A DNA stretch of 54,515 bases from a virus (Duplodnaviria; Heunggongvirae; Uroviricota; Caudoviricetes): positions 64,001 through 118,515 of IMG/VR virus record IMGVR_UViG_3300003691_000001, one strand, 5' to 3'. The position numbers were made by a program, and so were the translations under genes. This document shows positions 1 to 33,272 of this stretch, in pieces (position 1 is the first letter of the stretch; every line of letters begins with the position of its first letter). The notes beneath the pieces were generated by a model that was given only the letters and a program-made list of their open reading frames with translations, had not been told where the DNA came from and searched no databases.

Positions 1-3000
1 TACGTGCTCTACCATACTGTCTCCCATTGCTGAGAACAGGTTTTCAAAGTCTTTTTGTATCTCCTCTGTACTTCTACCTTTTGTCTGTATTCTCTGGAAT
101 GGTATTAAGAAAGAATCTAATGAATCAGCTGTTGATACTCCTAAGATATCCACTGCAGTCATTACAGTACTTCCTATAGATCTTACAACATTGGTAAGGT
201 TGTTTCTTATATCTGAACTAAGTCCTGCCAGGTGAGTCTCTACCCATTCATCGTCTGAACCGAACCATCCTCCATCTTCTTCAAACTGAATAATCTGAAA
301 TGTGGCTGCATTGATTCCATCTCTTAACGATTCAAAAGATTGAGTTGCAATTTGTATACCTGCAGATATTACATCGGCATCTATACCTCCTCCAAATAAT
401 CCATCTATTAAGCCTCCTAGAAGATTATCTCCGAAGTCAATAAAAGCTCCTGATATATCATCAAAAATCCCCCCAAAAGTATCTCCGAATATAGACCCTA
501 CCGTATTAGATAAGAAGTCTCCAACGTCATTGGTAGCATCCGTGAGGAAGTCTTTAATCCCTTGTCCTGGGCCGTCACTACCTGTTATATCTAAATCTTC
601 AAAGCTCAGGTCACCTGTTGCAATAGATTTTACAATACCTACTACAAGTCCTGCTATATTATTATTAAGCTTTTGAAGCTCACGATGTATCAAGTGGAGC
701 TGTGCATTCTGTTCATGATCTGCTTCTTCTATAAGCTTAAAAGCTTTGTTTATGGAATCAGAAGCATCATCTGGTGATCCTAGTACACCACCTGTAATAG
801 GTTTTGTTGTATCTAATGCAGCCTGTGTCGCTGATCCTGAACTACTACCACCTCCACCTTTCACTGATATACCTAATGAAGCCATTGTTCCAATCATAGC
901 TGCAATACGTGCAAAGGCTGTATAGGGATCTCCTAGACCCTGGGTAGCTATAGCTGCTACAGCTTGGGCGGCTGCTGCTAGGTTAGATGCAATAGTGAAT
1001 GCTCTAGCTGCTTCACTGCCTTCTTCAAAACCTGAAGACATTGCAGAAGCTACTTGGCTTAATTGTCCAAGCCTGTTAACGGTATTAGCTGAATCTAATT
1101 CACCTTGTTCTATCTTCAAGAGACTTAATCTCTTTGTAGCCTCTTCATTACCTTCGTCTGATAGCTTTTGAGCTTTATTAATAAGGTCTTGATTATGTAT
1201 GGATTTCTCTGAGAATGTCTTCTGCTGAGAGGCAAGGGTTTGCAATTCTTTTATTGCTCCTCCGAACCCTCCTGCCATATTCTCACCTAACTTAGACCAT
1301 GAATCAGACAATGTATCAGTGGACTCTATCGCCTTATCCATCTGCGTTAGGAATTCTTCATCTTCTTTCCTAGCGTCCCTCTGAGCTTTTATCGCTATTG
1401 CCTGTTCATTTAACTTATCCGTAAGCTCTTGATGGAGTATAATCCTCTTACCATCTTCCTCTGATAGTAACTGAGTTATTATCAACCCCTCTGTCTGACC
1501 TTCAAGTAAAGCTTTTTGGGCTTTTATTCTAGCCTGCATTGCTTTTATCGTAGACTTATCTTTTTCTATATTAGCAGCCTTTGCATTAGCTACCTTTCGC
1601 GCATTTAAAGCGTCCACTTCCTTCTTGATAGCTTTTGTTTGAGCATCTGTAAGGGTTGTAGTCTCCTTCAGCTGTTTTACAGCTGCTGCAAACCTATCCT
1701 CAACAGGTGTTAGGGATTTAGTTAATGCTTTGTATTTAGCTATTAGAGAATTAACAGCTGCCTGTTGGTCGTCAAAGTACTTCTTAGCATCCGTTCCTGT
1801 AGTAAGAGTATTCACAGCGTCAGTGTATATGGTTACACGATCCTTAGCAATTTGTAACTGATTACTGAGATTTGTAAACTCGTCACTACCGGCTTCATTT
1901 ATATCACGAAGCCTTTTCATAGCTTCTGTTATAGATGTAACATCCTCTTCTGCACCTTCCAGATGCTTTGAAGCAGCTTGTAGACCTATAGAGAAATCTG
2001 TCATAGAGCTATCTTCAAACTCTGTCATTAACTTGAAAGCTGTATTGAAAATATTCGCTGCATCTGTGACATCTTCTACAGGAGCTTTAATCTTATTCAT
2101 AGCTTCTGCATAGATTTCAGCAGAGTTTGTTATAGTGGCATTAGTTCTGTCTGCACGATTAACAAGTTCATCCACCAAAGCCCATGCAGTCCCTACTGAG
2201 GCTATGAACCCTAAGACGGCAGGTGCAGATGTTCCTAGTATTGTTGCAGTAAATGCTAAAGCGCCTCCAAGCTCTACAAGTGAGCCTGCTAATCCGGTTA
2301 CAGATGGAGCTATTGCCTTTGCTACCATAAGGCTAACTATTACATCTAAGTTATCTGCAGCTAGTTGTAGCAGTGGGTGTAGAGGTTCTAAAGCATCTAC
2401 TAATGTATTGAAAGCTCCCACTATTGATGGCAGTGCTTTCAGTAAACTTATCAAACCATCCCCTATAAGTCTAAAGGCGGCTCCTATGTTACTAGCAAAT
2501 TCAAGAGCTTCTTCTGACCCTATGAACTCCCCAAATGCCTGAACCACATCTTTAAGTGCTTCACCGAATCCACCTTTAGTTATAGCATCTGCAAATTGTG
2601 TGACTCTAGTTTCAGCTCTTGCAAAATTAGCTGAAAGTGTATTAACTGACTTAGATGTGGCAGGAAGTTCGAATCTTAATTGCGCTATGAACTTAGGCAT
2701 GAAATCTTCAGATATCACTTGCCCCAGTTCAAGCATTTTACTTAATTCTGCAGTAGTGGTTCCTGTAGCTCTAGCAGCTATTTGGAACGCACCTGGTAAT
2801 ACCTCTCCTAACTGACCACGAAGTTCTTCTGCTGAAACTTTACCCTTACTAAGGATCTGGTTTACAGCTGTCATAGCTCTATTAACTTCCGAGGTGGTTA
2901 GGCTTAATGCCCTACCTGCTTCTGAAATCCCTATGAAAATATCTCTAGTCTGCTCACCCTCTAGGGATGTATTCTTTGTCGCTGCTGCTAAGCTGGTGTA

Positions 3001-13241: not shown

Positions 13242-13997
13242 TTAAGCCATGAGAGCGAAATACTTCTCTTGTCCATGCTCTTTTACATAGTCTGATTTCT
13301 GTTTGACAGTCATCTTTGATCGTTGAAGGTCTGCAGTTCCCTTAGGGAGTGCATCACCGATGTTACCCTTAGCACCTCCACCTCCTACACCTGAGGAGCC
13401 GAACCAAGTACCGTATCGTTCATCTTCTTTATATTCTTCAACTAGTTGTGGGATAGTCATGAATTCACCACTTGCACCATACATACGCGGGTTACCGTCT
13501 CGCATGATGCGCGCCTTGAAATCATCACCCTCTGGTACGACCTGGATATGCTTTGAAAGTACATCCTGTGCCAAATAAGGTTGAGCCCCTGCTTCTACTA
13601 ATGCAGAAGTAAGCTGTGCATCGATTAAGTTCTTCTTCAGTGCGTGATCCTTACGATCTAATAAGGCTTTCATATCCTTACGCTCTACTTCAAAACCCTG
13701 TAACATTTCATCTCGACGGTACTCCCATCGCTCTTCATGCGACATCTCTTGCTGACGAAGCTTTTCGGCTTCTGCCATCTGTGCATCAAACTTTTCAAAA
13801 TCGTACCGGTTATTAATATCATCTAGGGCTGTCTTAGCGGTACGCTTTTCTTCAATAAGCTCTTGATTTTTATTCAGCAACCCTTCAACACCTTTGTCGT
13901 AGTCAGCTTTGAATTGGTCTTTATATCGCAACTCTGCTGCAGCTTCAACGGCTTTCTGGAACTCTTCTGAATTCTTATCAATCTCTTTATCTGACAT
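13242..13997 (-). CDS. Capsid scaffolding protein
   Basis: Coiled-coil (GLLNKNQELIEEK), GGGAKG tail, C-terminal KSDYVKEHGQEKYFAL; between minor head and capsid genes. Confidence 0.85.
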   Translation of the reverse strand: MSDKEIDKNSEEFQKAVEAAAELRYKDQFKADYDKGVEGLLNKNQELIEEKRTAKTALDDINNRYDFEKFDAQMAEAEKLRQQEMSHEERWEYRRDEMLQGFEVERKDMKALLDRKDHALKKNLIDAQLTSALVEAGAQPYLAQDVLSKHIQVVPEGDDFKARIMRDGNPRMYGASGEFMTIPQLVEEYKEDERYGTWFGSSGVGGGGAKGNIGDALPKGTADLQRSKMTVKQKSDYVKEHGQEKYFALMA

Positions 13998-23216: not shown

Positions 23217-23644
23217 TACGCTAGTGTGAATACGCCTGATGCATTCCAAGAGATAGTTACATCGCCTGATACTAGTGATACCGGACCTGCCATGTCTATG
23301 AATGCTACTGCTTCATCAGTAGCAGAAGTATCGTTATAGATAATTGCCTGAAATGCATTCGTGAAACCTGCACCATTTTGTGTCCAAGCTGCATCTGATG
23401 TGAAGTCAAAGGTTACTGTTCCTGCTGCCTCTGTTAATGTTTTAGTCGGTGTCTCTCCACCTGCTGTGTAGCCTGTTCCAGTTACTTGTGTATAATCCGC
23501 AAGTATGGGTGTAAGATCCCCTGCTGCTGCGGTTACTGCGTTAGTGATAAGCGCTACCTTAAACACGTGTGTATCAAAATCGTGTGCACCGTTAAGCATT
23601 GCTAATTTTGCTTCATCGAATACTACTAAATCGCCTGCGGCCAT
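23216..23644 (-). CDS. Conserved phage structural protein of the fibre module
   Basis: 142 aa; HDFDTHVFKVALIT...GYTAGG...VTISWNASGVFTL pattern, widespread in phage virion modules. Confidence 0.7.
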   Translation of the reverse strand: MAAGDLVVFDEAKLAMLNGAHDFDTHVFKVALITNAVTAAAGDLTPILADYTQVTGTGYTAGGETPTKTLTEAAGTVTFDFTSDAAWTQNGAGFTNAFQAIIYNDTSATDEAVAFIDMAGPVSLVSGDVTISWNASGVFTLA

Positions 23645-23731
23645 GTTATATTACCTTTAATATTGAGTTGGTTCGTTACGAACCATGAGGGGGATGTGAT
23701 AGAGAGGGTTCTCCATCGGGAGTTTTAAACA

Positions 23732-23956
23732 TTAAAACGTTGTAGGTTGGGCTATAGCCCTTACAGCCTTCATAAAACCAACCTGTAAATCTGTTGTAGC
23801 TGTAGCTGCCCACCTTTGATCTAAGTCTTCATTGGATTGTAACCGTAACATGAGTTCACCTACTTCAGAGGCTTTAAGCTTAACCTCATTCATCAAGTCA
23901 ATCTCTTCTTGTGAAAGGTCTCTGTAGCCTGTTATCTTCTTATGCTGGTTATCCAT
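23732..23956 (-). CDS. acb2: Anti-CBASS Acb2-like cyclic-oligonucleotide sponge (74 aa)
   Basis: [23 protein letters not shown]...RW.A...TDLQ.G.M...RAIAQP.TF closely matches the Pseudomonas phage Acb2 sequence as recalled; start set at MDNQ. Confidence 0.85.
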
Positions 23957-23974
23957 GGATGTATCTCTTAGGTG

Positions 23975-24515
23975 GGGAGTAGATGCAGGAAAACCCACAC
24001 ATCGTGGGTATACTGCTTTGAATGGGTGGTAACCTCTTCAGGAGAGAGTTGAAGGGTTACCTGTGTAACTAGGTTACACGGTCTCTGAGGTAGCGAACTT
24101 CAGATTCGAGAGAGGGTTGACATAACATTTCCGCTCTAATTGCGTGGTGTAAGAGGTCAACCGCATATGAATAGCTCCCGACACTTGAGAATCGACCCGT
24201 AGGTCAAGATAGGTAGTGGGCAACCTCCTACGGATTTACAAGGCCTAGTAAGATATCCTTGGCGTGACATCATCACGTCTTACATCAACTGTGCCGCTAT
24301 AAAAGGCAGGGAGTTGGTGAACTATGACTGCAAGATTTTAGCTTCTTCGATAGGCTTATGCAGTACTCTTACTATCACATATTATGTACCGTGTGATGCG
24401 GTAACCTCTTCCTACCATTAGTAGGTGAGCGTACATTAAACGCCGTTTGTTAACAGGAACGTTTACATATCAGTGTGTCTTATCGTTTGCACGTGAAAGA
24501 CCTGAAACGTTTAAA
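23975..24515 (-). ncRNA. Candidate large structured ncRNA
   Basis: ~540 nt with no ORF in the track; dense hairpins; between tRNA-Phe and acb2. Confidence 0.5.
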
Positions 24516-24517
24516 TT

Positions 24518-24594
24518 TGGTGGGACCAGGAGGATTCGAACCACCGACCTGCTGATCTTCAATCAGCCACTCTAACCATCTGAGTTACAGTCCC
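24518..24594 (-). tRNA. tRNA-Phe(GAA)
   Basis: Cloverleaf; anticodon arm GCTGA-TTGAAGA-TCAGC; encoded CCA. Confidence 0.9.
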
Positions 24595-24600
24595 TTTGTA

Positions 24601-24677
24601 TGGAGCGGGTAAGGAGATTCGAACTCCTGCGAAGAGGGTGGAAGCCACTTACTCTGACCTGACTGAGCTATACCCGC
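24601..24677 (-). tRNA. tRNA-Gly(TCC)
   Basis: Cloverleaf; loop CTTCCAC; one T-T mismatch in anticodon stem; CCA. Confidence 0.85.
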
Positions 24678-24682
24678 ATAAT

Positions 24683-24751
24683 TGGTGGATGCAGTGAGGT
24701 GGAAGCCTCTGCTGATCAAGCATTCCAACCCTTATAGGGGTTGCTGCATCC
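24683..24751 (-). ncRNA. tRNA-like RNA with non-canonical arms
   Basis: GGATGCAG/CTGCATCC stem + ACCA, three internal hairpins, no TTCGA loop. Confidence 0.55.
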
Positions 24752-24757
24752 TTTGTA

Positions 24758-24832
24758 TGGTGCACCCACAGAGAATTGAACTCTGATTGTCGGCTTGAAA
24801 AGCCGATGTCCTGACCGTTAGACGATAGGTGC
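24758..24832 (-). tRNA. tRNA-Glu(TTC)
   Basis: TCGGC-TTTTCAA-GCCGA; CCA. Confidence 0.92.
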
Positions 24833-24833
24833 T

Positions 24834-24909
24834 TGGTAGTCCTAGGTTGATTCGAACAACCGACCTCACCTTTATCAGAGGTGGGCTCTACCAACTGAGC
24901 TACAGGACT
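24834..24909 (-). tRNA. tRNA-Ile(GAT)
   Basis: CACCT-CTGATAA-AGGTG; CCA. Confidence 0.92.
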
Positions 24910-24922
24910 TCAATATGACTTA

Positions 24923-24996
24923 TGGAGTACGTGAAGGGAATTGAACCCCCGTAAGAGGATTTGCAATCCCCCGCCTAGCCATTCGGCAACACGTAC
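24923..24996 (-). tRNA. tRNA-Cys(GCA)
   Basis: GGGGA-TTGCAAA-TCCTC; T73; CCA. Confidence 0.92.
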
Positions 24997-25005
24997 TTAA
25001 TATAA

Positions 25006-25101
25006 TGGAGATGGGTTAGGGATTCGAACCCTAGGAGCTATGTTGCCATAGCTCGACGGTTTTCAAAACCGCTGCAATAAACCAGACTCTGCCAACCCAC
25101 C
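25006..25101 (-). tRNA. tRNA-Ser(TGA)
   Basis: GCGGT-TTTGAAA-ACCGT; long variable arm; CCA. Confidence 0.9.
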
Positions 25102-25107
25102 ATTGTA

Positions 25108-25200
25108 TGGCGGAAGAGGAAGGATTTGAACCTTCGGGCCATCCTGTAGACGACCGGTACCTTAGCAGGGCACTGCATTAAACCACTCTGCCACTCTTCC
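25108..25200 (-). tRNA. tRNA-Ser(GCT)
   Basis: GTGCC-CTGCTAA-GGTAC; long variable arm; G73; CCA. Confidence 0.92.
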
Positions 25201-25224
25201 AAATACACTTCTTTAGTGTTTGTT

Positions 25225-25302
25225 TGGTAGGGGTGGCTGGATTCGAACCAAGCGACCAATCGGTTAAAAGCCGACTGCTCTAAACCGCTGAGCTACACCC
25301 CC
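25225..25302 (-). tRNA. tRNA-Lys(TTT)
   Basis: GTCGG-CTTTTAA-CCGAT; CCA. Confidence 0.92.
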
Positions 25303-25358
25303 GTTATACTGTTACTCCGTTTATCGGAGGATATCGAATCTTTCATTATCTTATTCCT

Positions 25359-25387
25359 ATTATGTACACCGTACAGCACGATGTCAA
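25359..25387 (-). promoter_or_regulatory. sigma70-type promoter
   Basis: TTGACA-17nt-CATAAT upstream of tRNA-Lys. Confidence 0.75.
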
Positions 25388-25390
25388 CTA

Positions 25391-25564
25391 TTAAATTGTG
25401 TATTGAAACTCTTCATTCACATACTGATGAATGGCCTGTTCCTTTGTAAGGTTGTACCTTTCTTTGCAGCGCTCTTTAAAATCTACAAGTCTTATCTGCT
25501 TCTCTTCTGGAGTTAAATCATCCCAGGCTTCATTAGCTGCTTTTAACAGTTCTGCCGTTGTCAT
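25391..25564 (-). CDS. 57-aa hypothetical protein within tRNA cluster
   Basis: MTTAELLKAANEAW...; GAGGAG RBS; the track's longer ORF overlaps tRNAs. Confidence 0.7.
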   Translation of the reverse strand: MTTAELLKAANEAWDDLTPEEKQIRLVDFKERCKERYNLTKEQAIHQYVNEEFQYTI

Positions 25565-25578
25565 TTTAACTCCTCTTA

Positions 25579-25653
25579 TGGTGGTCCAGGGTAGAGTTGA
25601 ACTACCGACCCTCCAATTATGAGTTGGGCGCTCTACCATTGAGCTACTGGACC
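25579..25653 (-). tRNA. tRNA-Met/Ile2(CAT)
   Basis: CCCAA-CTCATAA-TTGGA; CCA. Confidence 0.88.
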
Positions 25654-25659
25654 TTTGTA

Positions 25660-25735
25660 TGGTGTGACGACTTGGAGTCGAACCAAGGCAAGCCAGATTC
25701 ACAGTCTGGGTCTCTACCAACCGAGATCCCGCCAC
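25660..25735 (-). tRNA. tRNA-His(GTG), lacking G-1:C73
   Basis: CCAGA-CTGTGAA-TCTGG; 7-bp acceptor, A73, A at -1; CCA. Confidence 0.88.
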
Positions 25736-25742
25736 TTTATTA

Positions 25743-25819
25743 TGGAGCACCAGAAGGGATTTGAACCCCTGCTCTACAAATTATGAGCTTGCTGCATTAG
25801 ACCGCTATGCTACTCGTGC
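25743..25819 (-). tRNA. tRNA-Met/Ile2(CAT)
   Basis: GCAAG-CTCATAA-TTTGT; one G-G mismatch in acceptor stem; CCA. Confidence 0.8.
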
Positions 25820-25825
25820 TTTATC

Positions 25826-25901
25826 TGGAGCCTACGACAGGAATCGAACCCGTGGCATCTTCCTTACAAGGGAAGCGCTCTACCAGCTGAGCTACATAGG
25901 C
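25826..25901 (-). tRNA. tRNA-Thr(TGT)
   Basis: CTTCC-CTTGTAA-GGAAG; CCA. Confidence 0.92.
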
Positions 25902-26135
25902 TGAATCGTTGGTAGCTGCTACCTACCGTATACATACTCGCGCTTATTGCAGGCCTGTACAGGCGCTTCGTAGGTCCTATTACATGTTTAGAGACAGGCT
26001 GAACTCAGTACCGGTCTATTACATCGGAAGGACTGCTTGTCATCTAACTTATCGCTAGGACATTCCCTTCATCTCGCCTACACCTTTTGAGTGTTACGTA
26101 CGCAGCATCGCAGATTTTCTGCTGTCGATATAATT

Positions 26136-26211
26136 TGGCTAGGGAGGTACGACTTGAACGTACAATCGTCACAGTCAAAGTGTGATGCTTCACCAATTAA
26201 GCTACTCCCTA
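26136..26211 (-). tRNA. tRNA-Gln(TTG)
   Basis: TCACA-CTTTGAC-TGTGA; T1-A72; CCA. Confidence 0.9.
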
Positions 26212-26221
26212 TGAATTCTTT

Positions 26222-26311
26222 ACCTTGTACAGGACCCGAACCTACAGCACCCCTTCTTGCAAGTGGACCCTCATAGAGGGCTGTGTTTCCGAAATATTGC
26301 ACCAACAAGGT
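26222..26311 (-). pseudogene. Degenerate tRNA-like element
   Basis: ACCTTGT/ACAAGGT stem, GTAGG-TTCGGGT-CCTGT T-like arm, aberrant central arm, no CCA. Confidence 0.4.
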
Positions 26312-26315
26312 GATT

Positions 26316-26392
26316 TAGTAGCGGGTCCCAGACTCGAACTGGGGATCTCCGGCTTATGAGGCCGACGAGATGACCAACTTCTCCAACCCGCT
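26316..26392 (-). tRNA. tRNA-Met(CAT), initiator-like body
   Basis: AGCGGGTTGGAGAAGTTGGTCATCTCGTCGGCCTCATAAGCC resembles the tRNA-fMet scaffold; 3' end ACTA rather than ACCA. Confidence 0.85.
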
Positions 26393-26403
26393 ATTGTAGC
26401 TAT

Positions 26404-26431
26404 AGCATACGCCAATCTTTACGCATGTCAA
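26404..26431 (-). promoter_or_regulatory. sigma70-type promoter
   Basis: TTGACA-16nt-TATGCT upstream of tRNA-fMet. Confidence 0.6.
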
Positions 26432-26440
26432 TACTTAATA

Positions 26441-26514
26441 TGGACAACCTGGCAGGATTTGAACCTACGTCCAAGGGAAACCCCTATGATTAGCTTTCCA
26501 ACGCATCAGGTTGT
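26441..26514 (-). ncRNA. tRNA-like RNA: canonical T-arm, acceptor stem and CCA, aberrant D and anticodon arms
   Basis: ACAACCTG/CAGGTTGT-CCA; GTAGG-TTCAAAT-CCTGC; central AGGG-GTTT-CCCT hairpin instead of a 7-nt loop. Confidence 0.55.
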
Positions 26515-26519
26515 TTATA

Positions 26520-26598
26520 TGGTCTCCGTAGATGGACTCGAACCACCGACCCCTCCGTCCCAAGCGGAGTGCTCTAAACCAGACTGAGCTACACAGAG
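26520..26598 (-). tRNA. tRNA-Pro(TGG)
   Basis: CTCCG-CTTGGGA-CGGAG; C1-G72; CCA. Confidence 0.92.
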
Positions 26599-26613
26599 TT
26601 ATTACTAATAAAA

Positions 26614-26691
26614 TGGCTGGCAATTTAGGATTCGAACCTAACTCATTCTCGGTTAACAGCCGAGTGCATTCACCTAGAATGCTAATCGCCA
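26614..26691 (-). tRNA. tRNA-Asn(GTT)
   Basis: CTCGG-CTGTTAA-CCGAG; G73; CCA. Confidence 0.92.
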
Positions 26692-26871
26692 AACTGTACT
26701 CTTATGGAATCCCTAATGTAATGGTAAGGGGTGAGTGTAACCTTTTGCATACCAGGGTTGACTATTCCCTGTGGAGTTGTATCGCCGTGACAGTGGAGGT
26801 TTCGAACCACTTTTCTGCCTATAGCTTCGTGCCAGCTCTTACCTGGCCCCATGTAGTCGTATGCAAATTCT

Positions 26872-27048
26872 TTATCCATACCGTTTAATGGTATGTGGAC
26901 CTTCTGCAGCGTGCAACTGGTAATGCTTAGCCTTCAAGTCTTCAATAGCTTCATCTTCAGTCCTGCCAAGCCCTATCTCAGGTGTTCCTGTTAAGTCACA
27001 AAAGTCTGCACAATATATCTCCCCTCTTCGAGAGATAAAGATGTTCAT
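26872..27048 (-). CDS. 58-aa HicB-like protein (not in ORF track)
   Basis: MNIFISRRGEIYCADFCDLTGTPEIGLGRTEDEAIEDLKAKHY...; resembles the HicB N-terminal YxAxxPDLxG...GxTxxEA pattern; ATGA overlap with upstream micro-ORF. Confidence 0.55.
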   Translation of the reverse strand: MNIFISRRGEIYCADFCDLTGTPEIGLGRTEDEAIEDLKAKHYQLHAAEGPHTIKRYG

Positions 27049-27104
27049 TTTTTAACCTTTTTCTTCTTCTTTCGCTTCTTATCTGTAGAAGGGTATTGGG
27101 TCAT
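27045..27104 (-). CDS. 19-aa basic micropeptide MTQYPSTDKKRKKKKKVKK
   Basis: TGATG overlap upstream and ATGA overlap downstream. Confidence 0.45.
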   Translation of the reverse strand: MTQYPSTDKKRKKKKKVKK

Positions 27105-27718
27105 CAGTCTTCTCCTTCTGCGGCTTCAAAGATTATCTCTAAATCTTCTAAGGATATCATACCCTCTTCAGATCCTTTAGCAGCCTTTTTAGCCTTAGCT
27201 TCCGCCTTTTTAAGTTTGGCTTCGTATTTAAGACGATCAGTCTTAGCCTTCTTACGATCGACAGTGAAAGTCTTTATAGGCCCTCCACTGTATACATCTC
27301 CTGAAATGGCCATCTTCACGGCCAATCTTACATCTAGTGGTACTTTCAGTGCCTTCATGGTATTAAGCGAGGTTAGGGCTAAGTCACCTCCGGTACCTAT
27401 TGCATAAGGCTTAGGTAATGGCAGGTAGTGCACATCGGCACCGCTAAAGGCAAATGCTTCTCCAGACTCTTTATCTATACCTATAAGTTGATAGCACGAC
27501 TCTTCAGTGTAGTTTGCAAAGTTAGGCTTATCTTCAGGAACTCGTCCTCCTGTAAGCCAGCTTATCACAGCGTTAGCTTGTGATGCGCAACCTGCAATAC
27601 CTACAAAGCAGTCTCCTAAATCGTAAATCTTCTTCACACCGTAGTGAGGTGTACAACCACCTACCGTCATTTGTGAATCGGATGCAATAGTATCCCCAGC
27701 TATAACTATCGTAGTCAT
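27104..27718 (-). CDS. HslV / proteasome-beta-like Ntn hydrolase
   Basis: N-terminal (M)TTIV, ASDSQMT, KKI, GIAG, AIGTGG, DVYSGG motifs. Confidence 0.75.
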   Translation of the reverse strand: MTTIVIAGDTIASDSQMTVGGCTPHYGVKKIYDLGDCFVGIAGCASQANAVISWLTGGRVPEDKPNFANYTEESCYQLIGIDKESGEAFAFSGADVHYLPLPKPYAIGTGGDLALTSLNTMKALKVPLDVRLAVKMAISGDVYSGGPIKTFTVDRKKAKTDRLKYEAKLKKAEAKAKKAAKGSEEGMISLEDLEIIFEAAEGED

Positions 27719-30166: not shown

Positions 30167-31633
30167 TTACAAGCAAAGACTCTCAGGTGTACATTTCCCA
30201 GCTACAGACTGTACCTCACTGAAGCTTAACAGCTTTTCACCATTCAAACCTTCATAGTACAAATCTACTAACATATTTATTCTTCCACCGAGATCTTCTT
30301 CGTTAACACACTCTAGCTGTCCATCCTTACCCTCTACAACAGCTAAACGACCTCTCTTCGATACCTTACCAGGGGTAAGCTTACCAACCCCCTCCCAGGC
30401 ATCTGAGCCCTTACGTTTCACAGCTGATAGCTTAAAAGCGAATCCGAGTGTATCTCGATTACATCCGTTCAACAGTGCACCTCCCGATCCAAAACATGTA
30501 TTGTCTAAAGCCCATCCACTTGCTACGACATTCTTGATTAGAATAGGCAATGTGCCTCCGTCTGTCAATATGGACATCCCATCACCTTGGATAGTGGTAA
30601 TGTGAGGAGGTAACTTCTTAAAACCTCGAGTGTTCACAGTGATCTCATTAGGAATGCACTCTTCAATCCAATTCATTACATCGATCACCTTAGAGGTGGC
30701 ATCACCGGAATCAGGTCGTAGTACAATAGTCTTACCTTGCTTCTTGATGATTTCAATCAAGTCTGCACACCCCTTGAAGAAGACTTCCTTTACAAAGTTC
30801 TCATCATCATAAGAGTCGATAACCATTGCCAATCCCCATCCAGGGATAGTACCTTCTGCAAGTGTACCATCAATGTTACCATTGATAAACTTTTCAAGTA
30901 AGCCTCGTACAAACGGTAACTCCTTATCAGCATCCACCAAGGTCATCACAGAGTGGGCAGTTGCACAGATTGTAGCCCCATACACCTTGGTCGTTTCATA
31001 GTCAATCTGTACCTGTCTAACAGCCTTTGTATTATCCGTACCCATGAAGTGTACAAGGTGTCCTTGACCGAGTATGCCAGCAACCTCAAGTGACTGACAA
31101 GCTCTCATTCCAAAATCATTCAGCATGAAGGGGAGCTTATCATCGTTATCGCACGAAGCCATCATCCCATACATGATAGCATGCTTAGCTGCCCAGCTTT
31201 GAGTTGATACAGAACATGGTGCCCATGCATTCAAGAAATAATCTTCAAAAAGACCAACTAACCATGAATACTTAGGGTCGGTGTTAGTGATTTGCAGCAT
31301 AGGAATCCCTGTACGCATCACTGTACCCTCTTCAATGACTTGGATATGCAATGGTAGGGTACCATCTGGATAGTCCACCAGCAGCTCCCTGAAGCCTTGT
31401 ACGTGTGCAGGCATTCCGTAGGACTTAAAGAAGGTTTCATCCTCTGGTGTCATTTCAAAGTCAACACTCCCCTCTAATTCCTGAATTAGCTTTTGGAATC
31501 CAAAGACTGCAGCTACTGCATCTTTTACTCGAGCTTCCATATAGCATGTTGCATATTCAATATCTTCATAGCCCATTAAATAGTGACTACCGATGTAACC
31601 ATCCCAACTGTATAAATTAATACCTTTACCCAT
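30167..31633 (-). CDS. nadV: Nicotinamide phosphoribosyltransferase (NAMPT)
   Basis: SH..Y, LNDFGMRA, HLVHFMGTD, ATAHSVMT, VIDSYD, VLRPDSGD, IQGDG, FGSGGALL, FAFKLS, KVSKRGRL motifs; start set at MGKGINL. Confidence 0.92.
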   Translation of the reverse strand: MGKGINLYSWDGYIGSHYLMGYEDIEYATCYMEARVKDAVAAVFGFQKLIQELEGSVDFEMTPEDETFFKSYGMPAHVQGFRELLVDYPDGTLPLHIQVIEEGTVMRTGIPMLQITNTDPKYSWLVGLFEDYFLNAWAPCSVSTQSWAAKHAIMYGMMASCDNDDKLPFMLNDFGMRACQSLEVAGILGQGHLVHFMGTDNTKAVRQVQIDYETTKVYGATICATAHSVMTLVDADKELPFVRGLLEKFINGNIDGTLAEGTIPGWGLAMVIDSYDDENFVKEVFFKGCADLIEIIKKQGKTIVLRPDSGDATSKVIDVMNWIEECIPNEITVNTRGFKKLPPHITTIQGDGMSILTDGGTLPILIKNVVASGWALDNTCFGSGGALLNGCNRDTLGFAFKLSAVKRKGSDAWEGVGKLTPGKVSKRGRLAVVEGKDGQLECVNEEDLGGRINMLVDLYYEGLNGEKLLSFSEVQSVAGKCTPESLCL

Positions 31634-31655
31634 CCCTATTCTCCTATTAAATAAT

Positions 31656-31964
31656 TTATTCTTTCTCCAACTCTGAAAGAGCCAGTTTTGTATTCTGCAC
31701 TTCTTTCTCCTGAGTTGCAAGCTTTTCCTTCATCTTTTTAACAATGCGTAAGTACTCTGCATGCTCTTCAGTAAACCTTTCTACAAAGTACTCTGGAAGA
31801 TTCTCTTCATACACCTCCCCTGTAACCCCAGGAATGGTGTATATAGGATCTTCACTCCTATAGTACACACTTACCTTATATCTGTCAAACAACTCTTGAG
31901 CAGCAGCTACATCCTTTCTCAGGGCATCCTTTGCAGCCCAGTACTCCCCATTGGTCATAATCAT
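31656..31964 (-). CDS. Hypothetical protein
   Basis: 102-aa ORF in operon. Confidence 0.6.
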   Translation of the reverse strand: MIMTNGEYWAAKDALRKDVAAAQELFDRYKVSVYYRSEDPIYTIPGVTGEVYEENLPEYFVERFTEEHAEYLRIVKKMKEKLATQEKEVQNTKLALSELEKE

Positions 31965-32272
31965 AGTTCCAGACCCATCTTACGCTTTTGTTCAAGGACT
32001 CCTTTCGCAGCTGCAGCTACACGGCTACCAGCCGCTGCTTGGTACTTAGTAGCCTTAGATAACTCCTCTTGTGCAACCCTCATAACCTCTTCTGCTGTTA
32101 GTAGGTTATCCCTTTCTTTCACATCCAATGCATTAAGTAATCCACTTATGTTAAAAGACCCGCTGTAACCTTTTATAGAATACCTGTATGCACTCATACC
32201 TGGATTATGTACGATAGACATCTCTATTCCGTAACTTGCAATAAGCTCCAGTGCCTTCTTTAATTCATCCAT
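31961..32272 (-). CDS. Hypothetical protein
   Basis: 103-aa ORF in operon. Confidence 0.6.
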   Translation of the reverse strand: MDELKKALELIASYGIEMSIVHNPGMSAYRYSIKGYSGSFNISGLLNALDVKERDNLLTAEEVMRVAQEELSKATKYQAAAGSRVAAAAKGVLEQKRKMGLEL

Positions 32273-33272
32273 AAAACCTCTCCGTCATATGTAGTATATC
32301 TCCATGATCTGCAAACCACCCCCGTGCACCTACTGTAGGAGGTTTCACCCATGCAATACTCTGCACTTCGCCTTTCTGAGCTTTCAGTTTACCACTACAT
32401 TTTTCAAAGTCAACACTGAATACGTGTGTAGACCTATTACCTCCACGCTGTGTACCGGTTAAATAAGCTTCTAGCTCTAGATCACCAGGGTCTACAATCA
32501 GTCCTGTTTCCTCTTCAAGCTCTCGAGCTGCACCGGATTCATATGATACATCTGTTACATCTAGGAATCCACCAGGTAAAGCTATCTTCCCGATACCAGG
32601 GGATTCTCCTCGAAGGATTGTAAGGATACGTCCACGCCTTCGTACAATCACATCTGTGCAGTCAAAATGTGGCAAAGGGAAGGGTGCAACTGCACGGGCT
32701 CTGTCCCATCGCTCTTCATACTCCTCTTCATCATCTACTTCAACCAGTACAGAGGATAGATCAAGTGTACTTATGTACACCCCTACATCCTTGGCAACCT
32801 TGCCTGTAGACCAATCTAAGCCCCTGTAGTACATGTTCCGTAGCTGTGTGGAAGATGTACTGTATGTTTCCTCTCCAAGACATTCAGTGCGGAAATACTC
32901 CTCCATGCATAGTCTTTCAGCCTGGTCATTACCACGGATGAAGCAATACAATGGGTATGTATATCCCATGAATTCTACACCCGATTTAATCTCTAAGTTC
33001 ATAATAAGAGCGTTAAGCCATAGATCATCGTCATACCGACTATCTCCTACAGGGTGTATCACGTACTCTGTATCCATAAAAGCATCCAGAGTAAGCTCTA
33101 AGCAGTGCTTACGCTCTTCAAAGCTTAGAGGGTTCTTAGGTGTACGCCCTTTATCTGCACTCCCTACAAGCACTATAAGCTTCTTACAACGTGATGCAGC
33201 CTCGTTCAGAAGGTGCTCATGACCTTCATGCAGGAATTGGAACCTACCTAATACAAAACCTACCTCATCCAT
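32265..33272 (-). CDS. Bifunctional NMN adenylyltransferase / Nudix hydrolase (NadM-Nudix)
   Basis: GRFQFLHEGH (HxGH), GS...RTPKNPL; Nudix box ALPGGFLD...AARELEEETGL. Confidence 0.92.
   Translation of the reverse strand: MDEVGFVLGRFQFLHEGHEHLLNEAASRCKKLIVLVGSADKGRTPKNPLSFEERKHCLELTLDAFMDTEYVIHPVGDSRYDDDLWLNALIMNLEIKSGVEFMGYTYPLYCFIRGNDQAERLCMEEYFRTECLGEETYSTSSTQLRNMYYRGLDWSTGKVAKDVGVYISTLDLSSVLVEVDDEEEYEERWDRARAVAPFPLPHFDCTDVIVRRRGRILTILRGESPGIGKIALPGGFLDVTDVSYESGAARELEEETGLIVDPGDLELEAYLTGTQRGGNRSTHVFSVDFEKCSGKLKAQKGEVQSIAWVKPPTVGARGWFADHGDILHMTERFYG

Follow-up and report, generated by a model that had tools for sequence, protein, structure and literature searches.

The gene-free stretch between tRNA-Phe and an Acb2/Tad1-type gene (acb2), with virion and packaging genes beyond, appears to be an array of separate small structured RNA modules (Table 1), since its pieces are reordered, or split by tRNAs or genes, in related phages. 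The array is real, modular and partly new. We lean towards reading it as the end portion of the phage's tRNA array, from which several independent small RNAs would arise out of the tRNA/late transcript, at least one of them a decoy directed at AbiF defence. The window, meaning the whole stretch of DNA analysed (54,515 nt), belongs to a phage record of 118.5 kb that is 82% complete. The phage is apparently lytic and has no close cultured relative, its best capsid match to cultured phages being 41%. Relatives were reached via the portal, small terminase and HslV-like proteins, and then their contigs, which are designated here by locus numbers. The closest homolog is L083, with a portal 63% identical.

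Table 1. Positions in the window of the array modules and of the neighboring features, in 5' to 3' order on the minus strand.
Feature	Position	Strand	Description
16 tRNAs	24518-26691	minus	
Sigma-70-type promoter	25359-25387	minus	11/12 consensus positions, by consensus match alone; upstream of eight tRNAs and the array
tRNA-Phe	24518-24594	minus	Last of the tRNAs
Module D	24458-24515	minus	Hairpin with A-rich loop; common to L087 and L149 (weak)
Module A	24372-24432	minus	Two hairpins with a purine linker between; 79% identical to L087 6698-6755
abiF-like hairpin	24327-24363	minus	Gapless 37/37 match to RF03085, 22.4 bits
Module B	24259-24326	minus	Long helix with an internal loop of invariant CCC, then a conserved unpaired linker and another hairpin
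Module B tail	24227-24261	minus	Possible H-type pseudoknot; common to the window and L083
Hairpin E	24115-24162	minus	Equivalence with L083 judged by eye
Module C	24028-24106	minus	CUACCUNAG hairpin, extra hairpin, bulged hairpin with CU-rich loop
Hairpin F	23985-24016	minus	Just 5' of the acb2 ribosome-binding site; z about -3
Acb2/Tad1-hairpin protein gene (acb2)	23732-23956	minus	74 aa; PF24729, 61 bits vs cut-off 27; first gene past the array

The first-pass annotation had described this stretch as free of ORFs and dense in hairpins. No ORF of at least 50 aa lies inside it (the longest is a 49-aa TTG-start frame), and all nine stems that had been named were located exactly where they had been placed. 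Two of these, the outer stem at 24248-24283 and the stem at 24197-24233, are nevertheless broken in L083 when the alignment is judged by eye, which suggests that they are probably not part of the conserved fold. Single-base indels are present in the alignment of the stretch with L083. Folding was better than in shuffled controls: the minus strand reached z = -3.27, with 0/100 dinucleotide shuffles as good, and the plus strand z = -2.31. Within 120-nt windows, z was -4.5 and -3.2 at 23960-24139 and about -0.1 to -1.8 elsewhere (coding controls, -0.5 ± 1.1), and the bulk of the folding signal comes from the 3' 180 nt of the stretch. The RNA strand is the minus one, the same as that of the tRNAs, judging by the strand of the tRNAs themselves, the promoter, and the pairs of module B, which on this strand include 10 G-U against one C-A mismatch.

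Homology searches set the stretch apart from its surroundings. L083 matches window positions 24353-24148 at an E-value of 4e-11 and 24109-24012 at 9e-7, and the matching segment sits in the same slot, behind the last tRNA of L083. With tRNAs masked, the stretch was the sole non-coding part of window 23600-27100 to match relatives, and the other tRNA spacers of that region gave no match in them. Rfam at gathering threshold returned tRNAs alone and no family for the stretch; at E-values up to 10, it added the abiF match of 22.4 bits and one chance match. Blastn against cultured phages found no homolog of the stretch, and neither Rfam nor INPHARED gave a match to known small RNAs of phage tRNA clusters. 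In 80 acb2-anchored loci there were matches to tRNAs alone, and a viral pattern scan returned only chance matches in its loose form and none in its strict form. Exact-pattern scans, which miss diverged copies, gave 0 matches for module B in GTDB and 0 for module A in IMG/VR and GTDB. Likenesses to RNase P, tmRNA, c-di-GMP, preQ1, HDV-like and pistol ribozyme RNAs were dropped for want of Rfam support. A CRISPR-repeat mimic was also dropped because the stem sequence varies among relatives. For a bacterial Y RNA (YrlA) there was no Rfam match and no TROVE or RtcB gene in the phage's own genome, where a CsrA gene was likewise absent. A ToxI-type pseudoknot antitoxin had no Rfam match, and the ToxI-like second stem of L085 is broken in L144.

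Module B is a new RNA family. Aligned over window 24259-24326 in six phages, it carries compensatory changes in 13 of 20 pairs with 93% of cells paired, against 6 ± 1.6 compensatory pairs and 74% paired in shuffles and at most 42% paired in slid controls; these figures come from 6-7 sequences, and the shuffle control ignores relatedness. The slid controls agree with the covariation, as does a held-out match, in which a model built without the window recovers the window copy at an E-value of 4e-7. RNAalifold yields the same fold. The structured RNA first proposed for this stretch is in this respect supported by conserved and covarying structure on the tRNA strand. Five relatives have, after module B, a further hairpin and then a second CCC-loop helix, while L085 and L144 carry a shortened B-like form that lacks the CCC loop and scores weakly. 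In five relatives module B lies directly behind an HslV-like homolog, and in two of these it overlaps the stop codon of that gene. The window has its own HslV-like peptidase gene at 27104-27718 (-). The putative pseudoknot in the tail of module B keeps 12/12 pairs in the window and L083, with one compensatory change, a covariation that in two sequences is not above shuffles.

Neutral spacer DNA with chance hairpins is hardly credible as an account of the stretch. Several windows do fold no better than the coding controls, and the statistical evidence for homologs is weak or nil for D and F; the matches to L083 nevertheless stand out from tRNA spacers that match nothing in relatives, the compensatory pairs of module B exceed those of its shuffles, and for module B this account is already refuted.

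The order of the modules bears on whether they form one molecule. It is D-A-abiF-B-E-C in the window, B-A-D in L087 and B-tRNA-D-C in L149. In L082, four ORFs and 2.3 kb separate B from C, and in L089 module B is directly followed by tRNA-Thr and then by terS, with no C. Shuffled in this way, the modules behave like genes of a tRNA array and not like domains of one RNA. The first-pass annotation had thought of a single large RNA comparable to GOLLD (RF02032) and ROOL (RF03087). This idea found no support, because neither family matched at E-values up to 10 in the window or in the L083 and L087 arrays, and because the pieces are reordered or split in relatives. The stretch is like GOLLD and ROOL in being non-coding, structured, placed beside phage tRNAs and of similar total length (PMC5737381; bioRxiv 10.1101/2024.12.08.627333), the mean length of ROOL being 581 nt (PMC5737381). 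Unlike them, it has no model match, its modules shuffle, and it is without a conserved whole-length multistem architecture. A place next to phage tRNAs is common to many unrelated RNAs, and one multi-junction fold of at least 500 nt is at odds with modules that are reordered or split in four relatives (L082, L087, L089, and L149). A large ornate RNA of 550-640 nt, forming a new GOLLD/ROOL-like class in the sub-lineage to which the window and L083 belong, is unlikely. It would accommodate the collinearity of B, pseudoknot, E and C in these two phages (collinearity over B-E-C is also expected from a single RNA and in that measure tells against separate modules), the position of the L083 promoter about 640 nt upstream of terS, and the whole-region z of -3.3. 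Besides the rearrangements and the Rfam result, however, it has to contend with two features of L083, namely an AU-rich insert of ~170 nt that separates E from C and, behind the B tail, a hairpin resembling a terminator, and no long-range helix was among those seen to covary.

The other early suggestion, a regulatory leader for acb2, fared no better. A cis leader or riboswitch for this gene, for example a cyclic nucleotide sensor, would suit a stretch that lies directly upstream of acb2, whose last 50 nt together with acb2 align with L085 at 57%, and whose pseudoknot strand has in the window an alternative perfect 7-bp partner. That alternative stem is, however, lost in L083, and Rfam gave no riboswitch match. 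Moreover, acb2 adjoins neither B nor C in seven relatives (L081, L082, L083, L087, L089, L144, and L149) and in L085 it sits upstream of both the B-like module and module C. Because most relatives that have the modules are without an adjoining acb2, and because it precedes them in L085, an acb2-specific leader is unsupported and very unlikely. The varied module orders also uncouple the modules from acb2, which is not a fixed partner of the array. An inverted repeat around acb2 was dropped from consideration, as 1.2 kb of sequence should contain a perfect core of 9 bp like this one by chance.

The hairpin at 24327-24363 is probably a true abiF RNA. abiF RNA (RF03085; RCd22 in the Clostridioides difficile prophage phi027) is the RNA antitoxin with which bacteria restrain their anti-phage AbiF/Abi_2 HEPN nucleases. 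The window hairpin scores below the gathering threshold of the family (22.4 bits vs 37), with an E-value of 0.18 across all Rfam and of 0.008 for the abiF family alone in its own genome. The former value, taken alone, is compatible with chance, and the same core was therefore scanned in 1.38 Mb of other loci. The sole equal match was phage contig L109, in which an abiF RNA over threshold (37.5 bits) is located at 13415-13452 (+), behind a capsid-like gene. With L109 as query, Rhizobium phage RHEph21 and Brevundimonas phage Bajun were retrieved. RHEph21 (MW980070.1) has an unannotated abiF RNA of 38.0 bits beside tRNAs (L156 704-739) and, at L156 887-956, a tRNA-like gene that is likewise unannotated and whose anticodon loop is short; the two flank tRNA-Asn ahead of the capsid gene. 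Bajun (ON529858.1) has an unannotated abiF-like hairpin inside its tRNA array (L157 708-743), sub-threshold at 24.1 bits. Since the window sequence was not the query that led to RHEph21, that phage is separate support for the window hairpin, whose core equals that of RHEph21 at 14/15 bases, among them some at which the Rfam consensus differs. The closing inner pair is changed on both sides relative to L109, RHEph21, and Bajun. The match to abiF RNA, gapless over 37 nt, keeps the inner three-pair stem (3/3 pairs) and the 3' bulge, while the outer stem is rebuilt with other pairs (5/6 formed); in loop and bulge sequence, 19/24 core bases agree with the consensus. Unlike RCd22, which has two copies, the window hairpin is present in one copy, with no toxin gene found, inside a tRNA array of an apparently lytic phage.

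No match to an Abi_2 (PF07751) toxin gene was found in the phage's own record, L109, RHEph21 or Bajun. With the own genome 82% complete and the L109 contig 46%, these two records could lack a toxin gene that the phages have. No abiF-like hairpin was detected among the relatives of the source phage. The element at 24327-24363 is a probable orphan antitoxin RNA. RCd22 neutralises AbiF in trans, its stem structure but not its stem sequence is needed for this, and AbiF proteins are present in Pseudomonadota (bioRxiv 10.1101/2025.04.15.648962). The window hairpin might act in trans in a similar manner, as a decoy antitoxin that would bind and silence a host AbiF (Abi_2 HEPN) nuclease, a role to which we give slightly less than even credence.

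Module C precedes the late genes. Its motif is located at window 24085-24093, and the window copy is 90% identical to L083 over 42 nt (E-value 5e-7). In seven loci, a hairpin that carries a motif of this type, and behind it a long bulged hairpin, are found 72-148 nt before the first late gene. A model from five loci finds an eighth, L084, at an E-value of 0.004, where the module precedes a homolog of the gene next after acb2 in the window, and the inner helix covaries in those five loci. The copies of the window and L083 were missed by the model from the other relatives, and the window copy by the profiles of those relatives too; its tie to relatives beyond L083 is one of motif, position and architecture. 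L086, L087, and L089 have an altered module C or none. It is a candidate late-operon leader that would act in cis, whichever gene comes first. A repeated late-promoter motif was considered for it and dropped, as there are no copies before other late genes.

Such a position raises the alternative that, in place of decoys acting in trans, the modules serve the tRNA/late transcript as signals for its processing, stability or antitermination, or are DNA signals near the start of packaging. We regard this as improbable. The fixed place of C before the first late gene speaks for it, as does the tRNA or tRNA-like gene directly behind B in L081, L089, and L149. Yet the neighbors of B differ on both sides, the G-U asymmetry indicates RNA on one strand, the C motif does not recur ahead of the other late genes, and the abiF match would be left unexplained.

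Concerning the remaining elements, module A is well supported, although from one distant phage: the comparison with L087, two sequences only, gave E-values of 4e-6 with blastn and 9e-5 with nhmmer from L087. For module D, held-out nhmmer gave an E-value of 0.82. At the position of hairpin E, L083 has a 7-bp stem of different sequence. A profile search of relatives with hairpin F found no match.

If the stretch is indeed the tail of the tRNA array, the promoter at 25387 would drive its modules together with the tRNAs, and 3' processing of tRNA-Phe would set the 5' end of the set. Release of the modules by tRNA processing is suggested by the three relatives with B directly before a tRNA or tRNA-like gene and by L083, which has its own promoter (11/12) ahead of module B. 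Module B may, more tentatively than the abiF-like hairpin, also serve as a protein-binding decoy, since its stems are free to vary whereas the CCC loop and the linkers stay constant. A whole decoy cassette, in which the abiF hairpin would disarm AbiF and B, A and D would be ligands of other RNA-controlled defence proteins, is a rather doubtful extension; if it were true, the partners of B, A and D would reveal new defence systems. The presence of Acb2 and NAD-salvage genes in the genome fits a counter-defence role and does not prove one. The NAD-salvage pair, a nicotinamide phosphoribosyltransferase and a cytidyltransferase/Nudix gene, lies at window 30167-33272 (-) and also occurs in L153.

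The tRNA-array format with small RNAs is known from T4, whose RNA C and RNA D, like other non-tRNA RNAs of phage tRNA clusters, are small and of a stable type. The modules resemble RNA C and RNA D as small RNAs beside phage tRNAs, presumably processed together with them, but differ in being several exchangeable modules in a row, with no sequence relation in Rfam or INPHARED. Phage RNA decoys of defence are represented by the pseudo-ToxI of phage phiTE and the Racr anti-CRISPR RNAs. In its proposed action the stretch is like these, a phage copy of the RNA ligand of a defence system without the system, whereas the targets are other ones and the stretch has no ToxI or CRISPR-repeat match. By analogy, it would most plausibly work like the phage RNA decoys within the tRNA-array format. 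The small RNAs of phage tRNA clusters were long without assigned functions, and the locus offers a testable lead in an orphan abiF-type RNA that is also found in cultured RHEph21 and, more weakly, in Bajun, with a new, well-covarying family in the same slot, near an Acb2-type gene. A long structured gap beside tRNAs, moreover, need not equal a single GOLLD/ROOL-like RNA.

Additional small elements were recorded in the window and its relatives. A tRNA-shaped element at window 24681-24753 (-) ends in ACCA, has three arms and an acceptor-like stem of 8 bp, and reaches a folding energy of -29.5 kcal/mol; it was missed by ARAGORN and Rfam and has no homolog among relatives. A 12-nt direct repeat occurs at window 24028-24039 and 24400-24411, with a looser third copy at 24219-24234 and a spacing of 181-191 nt. 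L083 contains a tRNA-like gene with an enlarged D-arm region at 1222-1324 (+) (26 bits) and, just past its promoter at 1378-1500 (+), stable hairpins (-42.7 kcal/mol over 123 nt) that are absent from the window. Finally, upstream of acb2 in L085 (2736-2792) lies a small element of two arms, closed by a 7-bp stem and ending in ACCA, and L144 retains an element of this type without acb2.
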